Counted from the stretch's first letter, positions 4,643 to 24,455 are shown. The stretch is DNA of 46,447 bases from an uncultured Negativicutes bacterium (GCA_963721525.1 CAVRJL010000011.1:1-46447), one strand, 5' to 3'. Notes: a model not told the origin generated them from the letters alone. Translations and numbers: made by a program.

Positions 4643-6259
4643 TTAGTACAATTTTTTCTGTTTTCCAAGCACAGCTTCTATAAAATTTTTAAATAGAGGA
4701 TGAGGTTTATTCGGTCGGGACTTGAATTCAGGATGAAATTGTGTTCCCAAAAACCAAGGATGATTTTTAAGCTCCACTATTTCGATAAGTCTTTCATTCG
4801 GAGATACTCCAGAAAAAGATAACCCGGCAGTTGAAAACATATCTTTATAGATATTATTAAATTCATATCTATGACGGTGGCGTTCATAAATTATTTTTTC
4901 TTTATAAGATTTGTATGCATTAGTTCCTTCAACTAATTTACAAGGATATATTCCTAACCTCATAGTCCCGCCTTTATGTTCAATCGTTTGTTGCTCAGCC
5001 ATTAAATCTATTACTTGGTTATTACTTTTTTTGTCAAATTCACTTGAATTTGCATCAACTAAATTACATACATTGCGAGCAAATTCTATAACCATACATT
5101 GCATACCTAAACATAAACCTAGAATCGGAATTTTATTAATACGTGCATACTCAATTGCTTTTATTTTTCCTTCTATTCCTCTATCTCCAAACCCACCTGG
5201 AATAACAATTCCGCCTATATTACCAATAATTTTATCTATATTTGCATCTCTATCTTCTAAAAGTTCGGCATTTATCCATTTTATTTCCACTTTTACATTA
5301 TTATAAAGCCCACCATGGCATAAAGCTTCATTGACACTTATATAAGCATCGTGTAAGTCAACATACTTACCAATAAGTGCTACTTTAACTATTGAAGATA
5401 AATTTAATATATTGTTAACTAATTCCTCCCATTCTATCATGTTAGGCTTTTGCACTGTTATATTCAATTTTTTTAAAACAATACGATCTAAACCTTCTTT
5501 ATGTAACACTATCGGCAATTGATATATACTTGGCATTGTTTTATTTGTAATTACAGCATCAGTATCAATATCACAAAATAAAGCTAATTTTTCTTTTACT
5601 CCATTTGAAATATTTTCCTCGCTACGACAAACAATAATATCCGCCGTGATTCCAATCGATCTTAACTCTTTTATGCTATGTTGAGTAGGTTTTGTTTTTA
5701 ATTCTCCAGCGGTGCCCAAATAAGGTACTAAAGTAACATGAATATATAATACATTCATCTTTTCCTACTTCCTTTTTTATTTGTCTTATTGCTTCTAAGA
5801 AAGGGAGACCTTCAATATCGCCTACTGTCCCACCAATTTCAGTTATAACAATATCAGCATATCTGCTTTTCCAACACGATAAATACGTTCTTTAATTTCA
5901 TTTGTAATATGAGGAATAACTTGTACTGTACTACCTAAATAATCTCCTCTACGCTCTTTAGAAATTACAGACCAATAAATTTCTCCTGCAGTTACATTTG
6001 AGTTTTGTCTTAAATTTTCATCTATAAATCTTTCATAATGGCCTAAATCAAGATCTGTTTCGGCTCCATCATCAGTAACAAAAACTTCTCCATGTTGATA
6101 TGGGCTCATCGTACCGGGATCTACATTAATATACGGATCAAATTTTTGAACTGTAACTTTTAATCCACGATTCTTTAATAATCTCCCCAACGATGCTGCA
6201 GTTATTCCTTTACCTAAAGAAGAACTAACTCCTCCAGTAATAAAAATATATTTTGTCAT
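4643..6259 (-). pseudogene. pyrG: CTP synthase interrupted by two compensating frameshifts (pseudogene, recoded gene or sequence error)
   Basis: ORFs 5843..6259 and 4643..5758 share one frame. The conserved [34 protein letters not shown] lies intact in a shifted frame at 5757..5858. The repaired gene is 538 aa, with intact GLCLGMQ and HPE glutaminase motifs. Confidence 0.92.
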
Positions 6260-16509: not shown

Positions 16510-17289
16510 ATGGATAGATATTTTGGATTATTTGATAGTCATGCCCACATTGATGACAAACGTTTTAATAATGATAGAAAATTAATAATAGACTGTGCAA
16601 TTAAAAATAAAATGTCGGGTATTATAAATGTAGGTACTGATATAATTTCAAGCCAACGCAGTATATACTTAGCAAATCAATATGCCCTTATTTACGCAGC
16701 TATAGGAATACATCCCCACAACGCCAAAAACGCTTTAAAAGCAGATTTTGAACAATTACAACAATGGTCTACACTAGAACCTAAAGTTATCGCTATTGGC
16801 GAAATAGGGCTTGATTACCATTATAATTTTTCTCCTGTAGACGTTCAAAAAAAAATTTTTATTACTCAATTAGAAATAGCAAAATCGGCAAATATACCTA
16901 TAATTATTCATAATCGAGAATCAACTGTCGATATGATGAATATTGTAAAACAATATTCTAAAAATTTAAAAGGGGTTTTTCATTGTTATACAGGTAGCAT
17001 AGAAATTCTTAAAGAATTATTGAAAATGGATTTCTATGTTTCAATAGGAGGACCTATAACTTTTAAAAATGCTTATAAATTAAAGGAACTCATAAAATAT
17101 ATCCCCATTAATAAGTTACTAATTGAAACTGATTGTCCTTATTTAACGCCTGAACCTTATAGAGGTAAACGTAACGAACCAATTTATGTAAAATATGTTT
17201 GTGAAACTGTGGCAACTTTGCTTGAATTGCCGCTAGAACAATTAATTAAATCAACGACTAATAATGCGCGTGAACTATTTATGATTTAA
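16510..17289 (+). CDS. tatD: TatD family deoxyribonuclease
   Basis: DSHAH, GIHPH, IGEIGLDY, HNRE, HCY and ETDCPYLTP motifs; follows metG. Confidence 0.95.
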   Translation: MDRYFGLFDSHAHIDDKRFNNDRKLIIDCAIKNKMSGIINVGTDIISSQRSIYLANQYALIYAAIGIHPHNAKNALKADFEQLQQWSTLEPKVIAIGEIGLDYHYNFSPVDVQKKIFITQLEIAKSANIPIIIHNRESTVDMMNIVKQYSKNLKGVFHCYTGSIEILKELLKMDFYVSIGGPITFKNAYKLKELIKYIPINKLLIETDCPYLTPEPYRGKRNEPIYVKYVCETVATLLELPLEQLIKSTTNNARELFMI

Positions 17290-17318: not shown

Positions 17319-19997
17319 TCAACTGAAAGATATCTGAGGTAAAATAATTATCACAGATGTGCCACCTTTTGTACGAGATTCAATCGTTAATGAACCATTG
17401 TGAGCTTCAATAATAGTTTTACATATTGCCAATCCTAATCCTGAGCCTGCTACTTGGTAAGGAGTTTTTGCACGATAAAACTTTTCAAATACTTGGTTCT
17501 TATCGCTTACAGAAATGCCCCAACCACGATCGGAAATTTTTATTTTTATTTTTTCTTTTTCCTTAGTAACAAAAATTTCTATTTTACTGTCTTTTTTAGA
17601 ATATTGAATAGCGTTATCAATAATATTTGTTAAAACTTGTTCCATAAGAGCAGGATCCACTATTATTTTATTAACTTTTTTGTCTATATGAAGATTGAAC
17701 TTATATTCTGTTAATTCTTCTTCTAATTTTTTTTTGACTTTTTCAAATATTCCTTTTATAAAGACGTACTCTTTATTTAATTTAACAGTTTTACTTTCTA
17801 AACGAGCTGTTTCAGAAATATTACTTACAATGTGTTCCATTCTTTTTGAGCTTCTTTTTACTATGCTTAAATTTGCATTCAAATCCTCAACACCGTCAGC
17901 TATTTTATTTTCTATTATTTTTGTTATGGTAGCCGTAACGTCTGCCAACGGTTTACTTAACTCGTAAGATAAAGAATTAAGTAGAGCAATACGCAATTCA
18001 TTGATATTTGTATCGAATTCTATCTGAGTACTTTGTTCTGTTAATTGCACTCGTTCTATAGCTATTGTCGCTAATCTAGCCCATGATTCAATCTGTCGTT
18101 GTTCTTCAGAATTAATTTTTTCTTCTGATACATCAATACTTAATACTCCAATTCTTTTCTCTCCAGATATCATTGGAATATGTAAACACTTCGACATAGG
18201 TAAAGTTTCTGTAGTTCGTCCTACTTTTTGTCCGTGTTGATATGCCCAAACGGCCACAGCATATTCTTGTTCGTCTATTTTAATGTAGTTAGCTTTTTTA
18301 GTTTCATCTTTATCCCAATATCCAATTACTTTTAGTTTTGTATTTTCTTTAGGAATCAAAACAAATGTTTTTCGACTTAAAGTGTCTCCACATTGAGCTG
18401 CTAATCTTTGTGCTATTACTTTCACATCGAATAAAGAAGCTATATCTCTACTAAATTCAAATAAATAGCGAGTGCTTTTTTCCCGACGACGTGCAGCATA
18501 CGCTTCGTCTTTAAGTCGTTCTGTTCTTTCCCCAACTAAATATATTAGTATAAAGGCTATTACTGATACGATTATATTATTAAAACCTTTTATGTGTGAA
18601 GTAAAAAAAATAGAATAAACGAAAACACCGAAAAATATTGCTTTATAAATAAACCAACGATTATTACCAAAAGCTACAAATATGGTTCCTAAAAAATATA
18701 ATATCCCTAAATTAAAAATATCAGTAGAATTTTTAATTAATATTCCTAATGATAAGCTAGTACCTACAAAAAATAGGCAAAAAATAATGTCTTTACCTAA
18801 CTTATTTTTGTTTAATCTCTTTTTACTTAAAGTTTTATTATTATTATTATTTTTTGCCTTTTCTTGTATAACATAAAAGTTTATATCACCACAATACCTT
18901 TGAGCTTTATCAACTATTGTTTCCTTAAATAAATTTTGCAACCTACTAATTATTGGTTTTCCCATTACTATAGTATTTACATTATTACGACGAGCAAATT
19001 CTACTATTTCTTTTGCTCGATCATACCCTATCAATGTAGTTGTTTTTCCACCTAAATCTTCAACTAATTTTAAATTTTTTTGTAAACGGTCTTCTTCTTT
19101 TTCTGAAGCAAATGTTGTCTTTTTTTGAGATATTACATGAACAGCTATTAACTCTGCTTTAAATCCTTCGGCTAACCTTTTTGCTGCTCTAATAAGTTGG
19201 GCAGCAAAAGGGCTTGAAGTTACGCATACAAGAACTTTACCTGATGCAGGCCAAGGTCCTTCTATTCGATTATTGCGCATATAATCAGCAATTTCTTCAT
19301 CTACTCGCTTTGCTGCAAAACGCATTGCTAATTCTCTAAGCGCATTTATATTTCCTTCACGAAAAAAATTTTTTAATGCATGCTTAGCTTGTTGCGGTAT
19401 ATATACTTTCCCTTCATTAAGTCGTTTAACTAACTCATCTGGCGTTATATCTATAAGTTTTATACTATCTGCATTTTGGAAAATAGAGTCTGGCACGGTT
19501 TCTCTTACTATTACCCCTGTTATTTTTGCAACTATATCATTCAAACTTTCTATATGTTGTATATTTAATGTGGTAAAAACATCTATCCCAGCATCAATTA
19601 ACTCTTGTACATCTTGATAACGTCTTACATGTCTTGACCCATCCACATTAGTATGCGCTAACTCATCTACTAAAACTAACTGTGGTTTTCTCTCTAATAT
19701 CGCATCAATATCCATTTCTTCTAATAATTTATTCCGATATTTTATTTTTTTTAAAGGAATTATAGGTAATCCTTTTACTAAAGCTTCTGTTTCATTCCTT
19801 TTATGAGTAACTACTACTCCTACGATTACATCTAATCTATCTATTAATTTATCATGAGCAGCTGATAGCATAGCATAAGTTTTTCCAACTCCTGCCATTC
19901 CTCCTAAAAATATTGTTAACTTTCCTTTAATTTCTCGTTGCGCTTTTAATAAAAGTTCATCAGGATTTGGACGAAATTCATATTCGTTTTTTTTCAT
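17319..19997 (-). CDS. kdpD: KdpD sensor kinase homologue with degenerate H-box (His to Tyr)
   Basis: N-terminal KdpD domain (GVGKTYAML, LVDELAHTN, TTLNIQHIESLND), USP, TM and GAF regions, HATPase N/G1/F/G2 boxes; the H-box reads SLSYELSKPL. Confidence 0.95.
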   Translation of the reverse strand: MKKNEYEFRPNPDELLLKAQREIKGKLTIFLGGMAGVGKTYAMLSAAHDKLIDRLDVIVGVVVTHKRNETEALVKGLPIIPLKKIKYRNKLLEEMDIDAILERKPQLVLVDELAHTNVDGSRHVRRYQDVQELIDAGIDVFTTLNIQHIESLNDIVAKITGVIVRETVPDSIFQNADSIKLIDITPDELVKRLNEGKVYIPQQAKHALKNFFREGNINALRELAMRFAAKRVDEEIADYMRNNRIEGPWPASGKVLVCVTSSPFAAQLIRAAKRLAEGFKAELIAVHVISQKKTTFASEKEEDRLQKNLKLVEDLGGKTTTLIGYDRAKEIVEFARRNNVNTIVMGKPIISRLQNLFKETIVDKAQRYCGDINFYVIQEKAKNNNNNKTLSKKRLNKNKLGKDIIFCLFFVGTSLSLGILIKNSTDIFNLGILYFLGTIFVAFGNNRWFIYKAIFFGVFVYSIFFTSHIKGFNNIIVSVIAFILIYLVGERTERLKDEAYAARRREKSTRYLFEFSRDIASLFDVKVIAQRLAAQCGDTLSRKTFVLIPKENTKLKVIGYWDKDETKKANYIKIDEQEYAVAVWAYQHGQKVGRTTETLPMSKCLHIPMISGEKRIGVLSIDVSEEKINSEEQRQIESWARLATIAIERVQLTEQSTQIEFDTNINELRIALLNSLSYELSKPLADVTATITKIIENKIADGVEDLNANLSIVKRSSKRMEHIVSNISETARLESKTVKLNKEYVFIKGIFEKVKKKLEEELTEYKFNLHIDKKVNKIIVDPALMEQVLTNIIDNAIQYSKKDSKIEIFVTKEKEKIKIKISDRGWGISVSDKNQVFEKFYRAKTPYQVAGSGLGLAICKTIIEAHNGSLTIESRTKGGTSVIIILPQISFS

Positions 19998-20058: not shown

Positions 20059-20640
20059 TCATCGTAATTTATCTAATTTTATATTTAGTTTTAATACATT
20101 TATTCTATCTACTCCTAAAACACCAAATTGCCTTTTTTCAATATTATTTTGGATAAGTTTTTTTATAACTTTTTCATCTATATGTCTCTCTTGTGCTATA
20201 CGTATTACCTGCGCAAACGCCGTTGAGGGGAGTATATGTGCATCTAAGCCACTTGCCGATGATAAAATTAAATCTGTAGGAACTAATTCTCTACGAAGTT
20301 CTGGATTTTCTTGCCTAAATTGTTTTATTCGTTTTAAAATAGTATTTTTTAACATGACATTTGTTGGGCCTAGATTAGAAGCTCCAGATTTTGTTGCATT
20401 GTATCCTTCTCCTGCATAAGATGGTCTGGAATGAAAATATTTTTTAGAAAAAAACTGTTGACCTATTAACTCAGAACCAACTATTTTATTATGCTCTTTA
20501 ATAAGAGAACCATTTGATTGCTTTGGAAATATGTAGTTAACAGCACTAGTAAAACTTAAAGGATATATAATACCCGTTAATAAAGTAAATATTACTAGCA
20601 TACGAAAAGAATTTAAAATACTTTGTATAAGACTATGCAT
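20059..20640 (-). CDS. kdpC: K+-transporting ATPase subunit C
   Basis: GSELIGQ, YFHSRPS, SGASNLGP, SASGLD and INVLKLN motifs. Confidence 0.96.
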   Translation of the reverse strand: MHSLIQSILNSFRMLVIFTLLTGIIYPLSFTSAVNYIFPKQSNGSLIKEHNKIVGSELIGQQFFSKKYFHSRPSYAGEGYNATKSGASNLGPTNVMLKNTILKRIKQFRQENPELRRELVPTDLILSSASGLDAHILPSTAFAQVIRIAQERHIDEKVIKKLIQNNIEKRQFGVLGVDRINVLKLNIKLDKLR

Positions 20641-20653
20641 ATTAATTTCACCT

Positions 20654-22684
20654 TTATATTAATTTTAGGAAAATCAAAATTATATCTATAATTTTTATAC
20701 TAATAAAAGGCACCAATAATCCACTCAATCCATATAATAAAAGATTACGCTTTAATAGAGCCTGAGCTCCTATAGGCCTATACTGTATTCCCTTTAAGGC
20801 CAAAGGAATTAATCCTACTATTATCAGAGCATTAAATATTACTGCACTTAAAATAGCGCTTTGAGATGTAGATAAATTCATTATATTCAAAAATTTCATT
20901 TGTGGATAAGTATTCATAAACATAGCAGGTAATATAGCAAAATATTTTGCTATATCATTTGCTATGCTAAATGTTGTTAAAGCTCCTCTTGTCATTAAAA
21001 GCTGCTTCCCTATTTCTACTATTTCGATGAGTTTTGTAGGATTAGAGTCTAAATCTATCATATTGCCTGCTTCTTTTGCAGATTGGGTGCCGGTGTTCAT
21101 AGAAACCCCTACATCTGCCTGGGCAAGAGCAGGAGCATCGTTAGTACCATCTCCTGTCATTGCAACCAATAATCCTTTCGCTTGGTATTCTCTAATCATT
21201 TTTAATTTAGCTTCAGGTGTAGCTTCTGATAAAAAGTCATCTACTCCTGCTTCTGCAGCTATGGCTGCTGCTGTTAAAGGATTATCTCCAGTTATCATTA
21301 CAGTTTTTATTCCCATTTTTCTGAGTTCCCGAAACCTTTCTCTAATTCCACCTTTTACTATATCTTTTAAGCAAGTTGCTCCAAACACTTTATTATCTTT
21401 TGCCACTACTAACGGAGTTGCTCCAGTTTTTGCTATCTCCTCACAAGCATGTTCTATTTCTTCTGGGAATATACCTCCTTTTTCAATAACATATTTTTTC
21501 ATGATATCAACCGCACCCTTACGAATTTCGCTCTCCCTAATATTTACTCCACTCATACGAGTATGTGCTGTAAAAGGTATAAATTGCGCTCCAAGAGCAT
21601 GCAAATCTCTTTCTCTTAAATCGTATAGTTGTTTAGCAAGAACTACTATACTTCTTCCTTCAGGAGTTTCATCAGCAATTGATGATAACTGAGTAATATC
21701 GGCCATTTCTTCTTCACTAACTCCAGGAGCAGATATGAATTCAGTAGCCATACGATTTCCTAATGTAATTGTTCCAGTTTTATCTAGTAATAAAACATTT
21801 ACATCTCCTGCCGCTTCTACCGCTCTTCCAGACATTGCTAAAACATTTCTTTTTAGCAATCTATCCATACCAGCTATACCTATTGCTGATAATAACCCTC
21901 CTATCGTAGTAGGAATTAAACAAACCAACAATGCTGTTAAAACAGTAATTGGTTGTATTATCCCAGAATATATAGCAAAAGGTTCTAATGTCACTACTGT
22001 AACTATAAAACTAATTGTTAAACCTGTTAATAATATAGATAAAGCAACTTCGTTAGGCGTTTTTTTTCTTTTTGCTCCTTCTACTAAGGATATCATGCGA
22101 TCAAGAAAAGTTTCTCCGGGATTTGCCGTAATTTCTATTTTTATCCAATCAGATAAAACTCTTGTACCCCCTGTGACAGAAGATTTATCTCCTCCAGATT
22201 CGCGAATAACAGGAGCCGATTCTCCTGTTATTGCACTTTCATCAACTGTTGCCATTCCTTCTATTATTTCTCCATCACTAGGAATAATATCTCCTGCTTC
22301 AATTAATAAAATATCTCCTTTACATAGCTCAGACGAATCAACTATGAAAGTTTTTTCGGCAGTAATTTTTTTTGTTTTAATCTGTGCACGTGTCATTTTT
22401 AAGGCTTGTGCTTGAGCTTTACCACGACCTTCGGCTATAGCTTCAGAAAAATTGGCAAATAATAAAGTAAACCATAGCCATATATTTACCTGAAATTGAA
22501 AATTTAATAATCGTACTCTATCATAAATAATATCTTTAACCATAATCAAGGTTGTAAATATAACTCCTATATATACAACAAACATTACTGGATTTTTCAA
22601 CTGTACTTTAATATTTAATTTATATACTGATTCTTTTAAAGCATTTATAATAAATTTTTTATCAAAATTGTCTTTTTTATGCAT
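20654..22684 (-). CDS. kdpB: K+-transporting P-type ATPase subunit B
   Basis: [24 protein letters not shown] and [13 protein letters not shown] motifs. Confidence 0.98.
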
Positions 22685-22699
22685 CTTATTCTCCCTTCA

Positions 22700-24403
22700 T
22701 TAACTAGTAGCCTGCAACATTTGTAAATGTTCTATAATAGGTCCAAGAGTTAAAGCTGGCAAAAACGTCAAAGCACCAACAACAATAACGCTTCCTGCTA
22801 ATAACACTGCAAATAACATACCATTTGTTAGAAAAGTACCTGGTCCTGTAGGAGTTTTTTTCTTTTTAATCAATTCTCCAGCAATAACCATAGCAGATAT
22901 AATAATTATAAATCTGCCAATAAGCATACTTACCCCAATGGTCATATTAAAGAATAGAGTATTTACATTTAACCCAGCAAAAGCGCTTCCATTATTTCCA
23001 GTACCTGATGCAAACGCATATAATATTTCGCTTAAACCATGCGGACCACTATTTTTTAAAGATAGTAAATTAAAAGGCATCATAACAGCTATTGCAGAAA
23101 AAGACAATAATGTTATCGATGGAATTAAGATAGCTAAAATTGCCATTTTTATCTCTTTTGATTCAATTTTCTTTCCTAAAAATTCAGGACTTCTACCTAC
23201 CATAAGCCCAACGATAAAGACGGTTATCAAAATATACATAAACATTCCATATAAACCAGACCCAATGCCACCAAAAATAACTTCTCCAACCATAATTTGT
23301 AACAATGCTACAAACCCGCCTATCGGTGTCAAGCTATCATGCATGGTATTAACTGCTCCGCATGATGACGCTGTAGTAACTGTTGTAAATAAGGATGAGC
23401 CCCCTAGACCAAATCTTATTTCTTTACCTTCAAAATTATTCGGTGAAGAAACGCCAAACTTAGTCATTAAAGGATTGCCATAATATTCACTTGCATAATT
23501 TAAAGTAAGCATTAAAAGAAACAACATTAACATCGTTATAAATATAGTAATGCCTTGTTCTTTATCTTTTATCATGAATCCAAAACCAAATACTAATCCA
23601 GCTGGAATTAAAAAAATAGCAAAAGCTTCTAAAAAATTTGTAAGCGGTGTTGGATTTTCAAAAGGATGAGCTGAATTTGCATTAAAAAACCCTCCTCCAT
23701 TTGTTCCAAGTAACTTTATTGCTTCCTGCGATGCAACTGGTCCCATAGCTATTTGTTGAATTTTATTTTCTAAAGTAGTTATAGTTACATATGGAGATAA
23801 GTTTTGTATTACTCCTTGTTGTACAAAAATAAACGCAAATAAAATTGATAAAGGCAATAATAATCTAATTATACCTCTTGTTAAATCAACCCAAAAGTTG
23901 CCCAGATATTCAGTTTCTTTTTTAATAAATGATCTTATAAAAACAATTGCAACGCTTAAACCTGTAGCAGCCGATAAAAAATTTTGTACAGTTAATCCTG
24001 CTATTTGTACAAAATAACTTAGCGCAGTTTCCCCATTATAAGCTTGCCAATCGGTATTTGTCATATAACTAATAGCCGTGTTAAGTGCTAAATGTACTGA
24101 TGTTACATTCGGTAAATGTCTCAAATTTAAAGGTAAATAACTTTGTAATGTTTGCAATATATAAAGAAATAACATTCCGAAACTATTAAAAATAATTAGA
24201 TTTGTAACATAATTTTTCCAATTCATATTTTTTTTTGTATTTATATTCCCAAACTTATATATCAATTTTTCTATAGGTAAATATATTTTATCCACCCAAG
24301 TATTTTTTTCAGAAAAAATTAGCTTTATATATTTACCTAAAAAATATCCAAAAAAAATAAGTAATACCACAAATAAAATAAATTGTATAATATCAATATA
24401 CAT
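22700..24403 (-). CDS. kdpA: K+-transporting ATPase subunit A
   Basis: TNTDWQ, LGTNGGGFF, SCGAVN and NNGSAFAG pore motifs; start placed at the ATG at 24403 behind GGAGG. Confidence 0.97.
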   Translation of the reverse strand: MYIDIIQFILFVVLLIFFGYFLGKYIKLIFSEKNTWVDKIYLPIEKLIYKFGNINTKKNMNWKNYVTNLIIFNSFGMLFLYILQTLQSYLPLNLRHLPNVTSVHLALNTAISYMTNTDWQAYNGETALSYFVQIAGLTVQNFLSAATGLSVAIVFIRSFIKKETEYLGNFWVDLTRGIIRLLLPLSILFAFIFVQQGVIQNLSPYVTITTLENKIQQIAMGPVASQEAIKLLGTNGGGFFNANSAHPFENPTPLTNFLEAFAIFLIPAGLVFGFGFMIKDKEQGITIFITMLMLFLLMLTLNYASEYYGNPLMTKFGVSSPNNFEGKEIRFGLGGSSLFTTVTTASSCGAVNTMHDSLTPIGGFVALLQIMVGEVIFGGIGSGLYGMFMYILITVFIVGLMVGRSPEFLGKKIESKEIKMAILAILIPSITLLSFSAIAVMMPFNLLSLKNSGPHGLSEILYAFASGTGNNGSAFAGLNVNTLFFNMTIGVSMLIGRFIIIISAMVIAGELIKKKKTPTGPGTFLTNGMLFAVLLAGSVIVVGALTFLPALTLGPIIEHLQMLQATS

Positions 24404-24455
24404 CAAAAGACCTCCGGATCTAATAAAATTTACCTCTAAACGCTAATTTTACCAT
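24403..24455 (-). pseudogene. kdpF: kdpF remnant (internal deletion plus frameshift)
   Basis: AAGAGG RBS and ATG at 24455 (MVKLAFRGKFY*); another frame reads LLDPEVF* (cf. KdpF C-terminal LLxPE(K/R)F*), whose TGA overlaps the kdpA ATG (TGATG); only 53 nt, no TM helix. Confidence 0.65.

Follow-up and report, generated by a model that had tools for sequence, protein, structure and literature searches.

What keeps a full-length KdpD in a reduced genome after its phospho-accepting histidine has been replaced? The gene that poses this question, kdpD (17319..19997, minus strand), lies in a window of 46,447 nucleotides, which is the whole stretch of DNA analyzed here. It encodes 892 amino acids with full-length architecture and a dead histidine-kinase module, and it is the last gene of a kdpA-kdpB-kdpC-kdpD run on the minus strand (kdpA, 568 aa, 22700..24406; kdpB, 676 aa, 20654..22684, with DKTGT at 301; kdpC, 193 aa, 20059..20640). 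Where kdpE sits in relatives, there is a convergent tatD (16510..17289, plus strand), and the gap between the gene ends at 17319 and 17289 is 29 nt, as a first, sequence-only reading of this DNA had given it. The assembly (G000; 769 kb, 81% complete, ~30% GC) is Negativicutes-like, given that the named homologues matching it best come from Sporomusa and Pelosinus; the other two genomes of its family (G001 and G002) measure 2.4 and 3.4 Mb. The sequence-only reading had proposed that this KdpD is retained as a post-translational regulator of the KdpABC pump.

Loss of the phospho-accepting histidine

The H-box of this KdpD is ELRIALLNSLS-Y678-ELSKPL. The codon at the phospho-acceptor position (17964..17966, minus strand), read directly, is TAC, and the Arg and Thr (H+4) that follow the His in the family are Ser681 and Lys682; both the tyrosine and the change of RT to SK had been claimed before. 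Among the homologue matches listed, 119/119 have His in this column. A canonical histidine kinase has the His together with the H+4 Thr, a residue needed for phosphatase activity in HisKA kinases (PMC3510030), and here Tyr678 and Lys682 occupy these positions.

The assembly does contain foreign contig ends as well as two 1-nt indels in pyrG, so a miscalled base has to be considered. We regard this explanation of Tyr678 as scarcely credible, and it is largely refuted by two observations. A 151-nt contig from a public run (X1), possibly from the same sample as the assembly, covers 17926-18076 at a depth of 2 with 0 differences; it flanks the codon by 38 and 110 bases and has TAC, not the CAC or CAT that would have undone the earlier claim. 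Pieces from a second public run (X2) match elsewhere, none of them over this codon, and carry no information on how strongly the gene is expressed. Moreover, 10 of the 23 DHp columns conserved among 102 full-length homologues are altered here, and a single base error therefore cannot explain the H-box. The loss of the phospho-accepting His is confirmed as real and multi-site. As for pyrG (CTP synthase; window 4643-6259, minus strand), two opposite 1-nt indels ~100 nt apart divide it into two ORFs, and it could be either an assembly error or a pseudogene.

The kdpD reading frame itself is intact, as had been stated, with zero stops and zero frameshifts over its 892 codons. An RNA-run contig is identical to kdpD over 128 nt, a weak sign of expression.

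Domain-specific decay

Decay of this KdpD is domain specific. The protein has the canonical order KdpD-Usp-TM-GAF-DHp-CA within a kdpABC operon, and we estimated rates for each domain in this lineage relative to 10 His-bearing relatives (all coordinates that follow are on the minus strand). The KdpD or atypical serine kinase (ASK) domain (residues 24-232, 19302..19928) keeps 90 of 96 invariant columns at a relative rate of 1.55. Its Walker A motif, GxxxxxGKT plus an aromatic residue (G32-T40 and Y41, 19904-19875), its Walker B residues D111/E112 (19667-19662), and its adenine-binding R192 (19424-19422) are all present. Together with the Usp domain (residues 254-378, 18864..19238; rate, 1.75) and the GAF domain (residues 525-649, 18051..18425; 13/16 invariant columns kept; rate, 1.54), it evolves at the background rate of ~1.5-1.8x the relatives set by KdpA (1.65), KdpB (1.54), and KdpC (1.78), in keeping with the earlier statement that the N-terminal region is conserved. 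Rates of ~4x are found for the strongly diverged four-helix TM domain (residues 400-505, 18483..18800; 4/12 invariant columns kept; rate, 4.11) and for the degenerate DHp domain (residues 665-737, 17787..18005; 17/27 kept; rate, 4.24). The CA (ATP-binding) domain (residues 781-888, 17334..17657) is largely kept, with 31/35 invariant columns, a core relative rate of 2.09 (CI 1.57-2.88), and the N, G1, F, and G2 boxes as previously described. A second column count, based on the 102 full-length homologues, agrees with this per-domain picture.

Two features had been absent from the sequence-only reading. One is the N-box, where Lys has become Gln798. The other is the TM domain with its TM3-TM4 loop (about 18614-18582), which is as eroded as the DHp domain; the loop is shorter by 4-5 residues and no longer has the family motif P-P-x-F-T-F-x-V-x-D. 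This loop is said, in work attributed to Schramke et al. from 2016, to be the external K+ site of KdpD. According to a review, an external K+ site inhibits KdpD autokinase (PMC5936718). The joint erosion of DHp and TM, with ASK, Usp, and GAF at background, leads us to predict a serine kinase that takes its cue from the cytoplasmic side rather than from the outer K+ site.

An AlphaFold model of the protein has a mean pLDDT of 82, with every domain folded and four TM helices; the model rests on an alignment of His-bearing homologues. Its ASK domain superimposes on the KdpD N-terminal structure PDB 2r8r with an rmsd of 1.3-1.9, and its kinase core matches HK853-type kinase cores. We also considered c-di-AMP as a ligand of the Usp domain and rejected it. 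The consensus (A/G/C)-X-S-X-S-X2-N...(Y/F), taken from the motifs described in PMC4686210 and PMC8214093, is matched at 2/5 positions, the domain reading C-V-T-S-S-P-F-A with His at the consensus Tyr position. A diadenylate cyclase gene is present in the assembly.

The uneven rates bear on the possibility that the whole of kdpD is a relic left after the loss of kdpE, with an N-terminal half that is merely decaying later. The genome is reduced relative to its family, the TM and DHp domains are heavily eroded, and no relative close enough for a direct dN/dS of kdpD was found: the best homologues are ~47% identical over the whole protein, a metagenome scan gave at most ~34% identity over long C-terminal matches, and a genome scan for close relatives found nothing. 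Against this, ASK, Usp, and GAF evolve at the rate of the pump subunits while neighboring domains of the same ORF run at ~4x, no stop or frameshift has accumulated, and the exact RNA-run match hints at expression. We therefore judge general decay to be improbable.

No kdpE and no other potassium importer found in the assembly

The earlier claim that kdpE is missing holds both beside kdpD and in the 769-kb, 81%-complete assembly, where a KdpE model search gave no match at E <= 1e-48. A single gene of the assembly (C15:219193-219915) carries both the one receiver domain above the cut-off and the one OmpR-type DNA-binding domain that were found, and its product is 29-32% identical to six KdpEs. 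We rejected this response regulator as a partner of KdpD because it lies on foreign DNA: the tail of contig C15 that carries it has a GC3 of 0.52, versus <= 0.28 in 109 core ORFs, and a tetranucleotide r of 0.47, versus >= 0.94, and the Atlas clusters nearest to it belong mostly to Bacteroidota. High-GC segments occur at contig ends, namely, on C15 from about 209500 and at the ends of C6, C8, and C16.

KdpD provides the only histidine-kinase CA domain found in the assembly. Three HATPase matches were obtained, and the two others are presumably GyrB and MutL, judging from their sequences. A 1460-aa ORF (C15:84396-88778, minus strand) reads in frame as what we take to be MutS followed by MutL; it may be either a real fusion or the product of an indel joining overlapping genes.

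No TrkH, TrkA, Kup, KimA-like gene, or K+-channel signature was found in the 81%-complete assembly. Control of the kdp operon by a riboswitch was rejected, as an Rfam scan of the window returned 4 tRNAs only and the sole c-di-AMP riboswitch of the assembly is on another contig, ahead of an unrelated gene. This riboswitch (C6:21063-21210, minus strand; locus L119) lies ahead of a 350-aa ORF whose start is signal-like, and in G001 and G002 the same riboswitch precedes a 221-aa gene resembling a cell-wall protein. A promoter scan performed at chance level (46 sites versus 39.5 +/- 6.7).

His-less KdpDs in other genomes

The sequence-only reading had suggested searching databases for similar loci. 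We scanned the DNA of 185,579 species genomes with a pattern for KdpD-type H-boxes with Y/N/D/E/K at the His position; the pattern would recover 78/119 known homologues and is blind to Q, R, L, and P. The scan returned 42 loci, which divided into 4 that were out of frame, 16 that were other kinases or lacked an ASK domain, and 22 ASK-bearing KdpDs, all additional to the one studied here. The CA domain is kept in 16 of these 22 (one cut by a contig end), and the other 6 end after DHp. A search of 301 genomes of the class for other replacements (second codon base not A) gave 0 matches, Gln lying outside its scope. K39, T40, D111, E112, and R192 are kept in 22/22.

The link with kdpE is strong locally. 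The gene lies directly downstream of kdpD at 20/20 His-bearing loci with room for it, versus 2/21 His-less loci (window included; L026, L136, L143, and L222, being split or cut, are left out of the count), and at both of the two exceptions the His alone is changed. Genome-wide, the link of His loss to kdpE loss is looser: 13/22 of the surveyed His-less genomes have a KdpE-like match somewhere, five of these 13 also having a second, His-bearing KdpD, and 9/22 have none. In G042 (L223 and L218), the His-less KdpD is in the kdpABC operon and a His-bearing kdpDE pair is on another contig, with no pump genes in the 8 kb upstream of the pair. In Acidimicrobiia (L141, L145, L171 [L236, L237]), the gene for a His-less full-length KdpD has, upstream of it, a gene for a His-bearing TM-GAF-kinase and a response regulator, possibly reflecting a division of labor.

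Could phosphorylation signaling persist, either on Tyr678 or toward a regulator whose gene lies in the unassembled portion of the genome? In favor of this are the intact CA boxes, the fact that Tyr replaces the His more often than any other residue among the surveyed proteins (13/22), and the ~19% of the genome that is missing. Yet Asn (8) and Asp (1) also replace the His, the change to Tyr needs just one C-to-T step in the first codon position, our KdpD and 17/22 of the surveyed proteins have lost the H+4 Thr, and wild-type DivL of Caulobacter, which has Tyr at this position, is reported not to autophosphorylate (PMC4211667). We consider persistent phosphosignaling very improbable.

A FastTree phylogeny of the part preceding the H-box, with 61 scored rows and an uneven sample of His-bearing proteins, requires the state to have changed at least 7 times and nests the present KdpD among His-bearing Negativicutes. 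The KdpDs of G001 and G002 end after GAF, at 661 and 665 aa, and neither genome has a KdpE match; the trees are compatible both with and without a sister relation between these copies and ours. Six surveyed proteins (L136, L147, L148, L152, L155, and L168), from Elusimicrobiota, Planctomycetota, and Omnitrophota, form a clade; they are KdpDs of 725-730 aa that have Tyr in place of the His and end right after DHp, and their DHp has a dN/dS of about 0.03-0.07 in two pairs. The survey also outlines a stepwise exit from two-component signaling, in which His and Thr are lost first, CA is cut next, and DHp is cut last. The TM3-TM4 loop is also degenerate in L164 and L173 (His-less and kdpE-less), and it is kept in L156, in L170, and in the truncated clade. 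Among the surveyed pumps, KdpB and KdpC form one 869-aa ORF in G030 (L123), and in G057 (L229) a long open frame ending in KdpC overlaps kdpB.

We also asked whether kinase loss follows Trk/Kup loss as a rule, and this was unsupported. TrkH was found in 2/12 kinase-dead, kdpE-less genomes versus 8/16 His-bearing genomes (p 0.11, with kin that are not independent), and Kup was found in 0/18 same-class genomes searched.

A probable serine-kinase brake on KdpABC

These results support the earlier proposal of a post-translational role for this KdpD, as a reading drawn from ASK residues and rates, the lack of a detected kdpE, and the published E. coli mutants. Specifically, we think it probable that the pump is expressed independently of KdpE and braked by serine phosphorylation, whichever function the DHp-CA tail has. 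With kdpE gone, kdpABCD would probably be transcribed free of two-component control, and when K+ is ample the N-terminal Walker A/B domain would phosphorylate Ser156 of KdpB and switch KdpABC off, the kinase likely taking its cue from the conserved GAF/Usp side rather than from the outer loop. A brake is the likely role because, in E. coli, KdpD H673A still phosphorylates KdpB, as reported by Silberberg et al. (PMC11018627), and every ASK residue named there is present here. The contrast between ASK, Usp, and GAF at the pump's own rate and DHp and TM at more than 4 points the same way, as does the lack of a detected KdpE or other K+ importer in the 81%-complete assembly, along with the family members whose KdpDs stop after GAF and that have no KdpE match. 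On the other side, kdpE or other importers could lie in the unassembled fraction, KdpE-like matches do occur in over half of the surveyed His-less genomes, and the absence of TrkH is unspecific, being frequent in His-bearing genomes too. The predicted serine target, the TGES of KdpB (residues 153-156, 22228-22217, minus strand), is retained as the sequence-only reading had said, but its retention is weak evidence for a kinase substrate, the motif being general to P-type ATPases (PMC7535926).

What, then, is the DHp-CA tail for? We lean somewhat toward the brake with the tail as a passenger, likely kept because it is folded and stabilizes the dimer, and because only cuts at domain borders would be tolerated. 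The six surveyed His-less KdpDs that end right after DHp indicate that CA can be lost. However, the N-box Asn, the G1 Asp, and the glycines are kept in 15/15 complete His-less proteins, and the dN/dS of DHp+CA in five pairs from three His-less clades (0.055-0.19, upper bounds < 0.3) overlaps that in three His-bearing pairs (0.085-0.135). Such retention of CA, with such low dN/dS, exceeds what a passenger obviously needs.

The same observations speak for another, less likely version of the brake, in which the N-terminal kinase would be gated by the dead DHp-CA through its binding of ATP/ADP or of a partner, so that a former output serves as an input, as it does in DivL. Decay of the tail at the DHp rate would be expected to produce 6-8 stops, of which none is seen, and to leave 20-22 of the 35 CA invariants, where 31 are kept; this estimate uses assumed mutation weights and treats DHp changes as neutral. 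DivL has the same His-to-Tyr change, keeps all boxes, and works as a sensor (PMC4211667). By contrast, CA is absent in the six truncated relatives and the whole DHp-CA in both family members, deletion of these domains in E. coli leaves inhibition of the pump in place (PMC11018627), the N-box Lys798 is Gln here, and selection for a stable fold alone can yield low dN/dS. In DivL, furthermore, the regulator-docking surface is reported as conserved, whereas here DHp has eroded and the search for a native regulator gave none. We hold it to be possible, but rather unlikely, that His-less KdpDs are repeatedly evolved tandem pseudokinase-kinases whose dead module is selected as a nucleotide-sensing or conformational input gating the serine kinase, with this genome as the extreme case. 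If so, a cell without a native two-component system would control the one K+ importer detected in it through serine phosphorylation alone and would have discarded the outer K+ site together with the His.

Comparison with known systems

The core idea, a KdpD kept purely as a pump brake, is already published, which limits the surprise of our result. Silberberg et al. (2024, PMC11018627) report that the N-terminal domain of E. coli KdpD phosphorylates S162 of KdpB without H673, DHp-CA, or KdpE, the phosphorylation being intact both in H673A and after deletion of DHp-CA. The residues needed in E. coli match Walker A, Tyr41, Asp111/Glu112, and Arg192 here (offset, +2, with T40 and with Y41 for W39), and the domain order is the same, so that this KdpD is a natural counterpart of H673A. 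It differs from the E. coli protein in having no KdpE, in having lost the H+4 Thr and the TM3-TM4 loop, and in its N-box Gln. Since control of the serine-kinase activity is listed as an open question in that paper, the present protein may serve as a natural mutant, or dissection, for asking what controls it.

Supplementary Data 1 and 2 of the same paper contain a class named "Full length, Mutated catalytic His," with 8/5495 species, 7 of them without a KdpE accession. Our KdpD belongs to this class, being full length with Walker A/B present and the His replaced. The 8 species tabulated are 4 Chlamydiota and 4 Pseudomonadota, with none listed from Bacillota, and our protein adds a case from Negativicutes-like Bacillota. 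In that source the class is tabulated only, and the literature listings we searched, which leave most subscription journals outside their coverage, returned no paper analyzing a His-less KdpD or a KdpD pseudokinase. Annotation that relies on domains would take such proteins for functional histidine kinases.

The paper further states that kinase-less forms dominate among species without KdpE, with 61/5495 species in the "Truncated DHpCA domain" class and 922/5495 with KdpD/Usp only (see also NCBIfam NF038185). These forms share with ours the lack of histidine-kinase output, the retained ASK domain, and, mostly, the absence of KdpE, and the KdpDs of G001 and G002 are of the truncated kind. Our protein differs from them in retaining the whole of DHp-CA with its ATP-binding boxes intact.

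In this respect it resembles DivL, which has Tyr for His, retains the N, G1, F, and G2 boxes, and is reported to have no kinase activity (PMC4211667); the CA of DivL is dispensable, as is that of E. coli KdpD for the serine-kinase role. DivL, however, receives PAS inputs and uses a conserved DHp to bind a phosphorylated regulator, while in the present KdpD the DHp is eroded (4.2x), no native regulator was found to dock on it, and a separate serine-kinase domain is predicted to provide the output.
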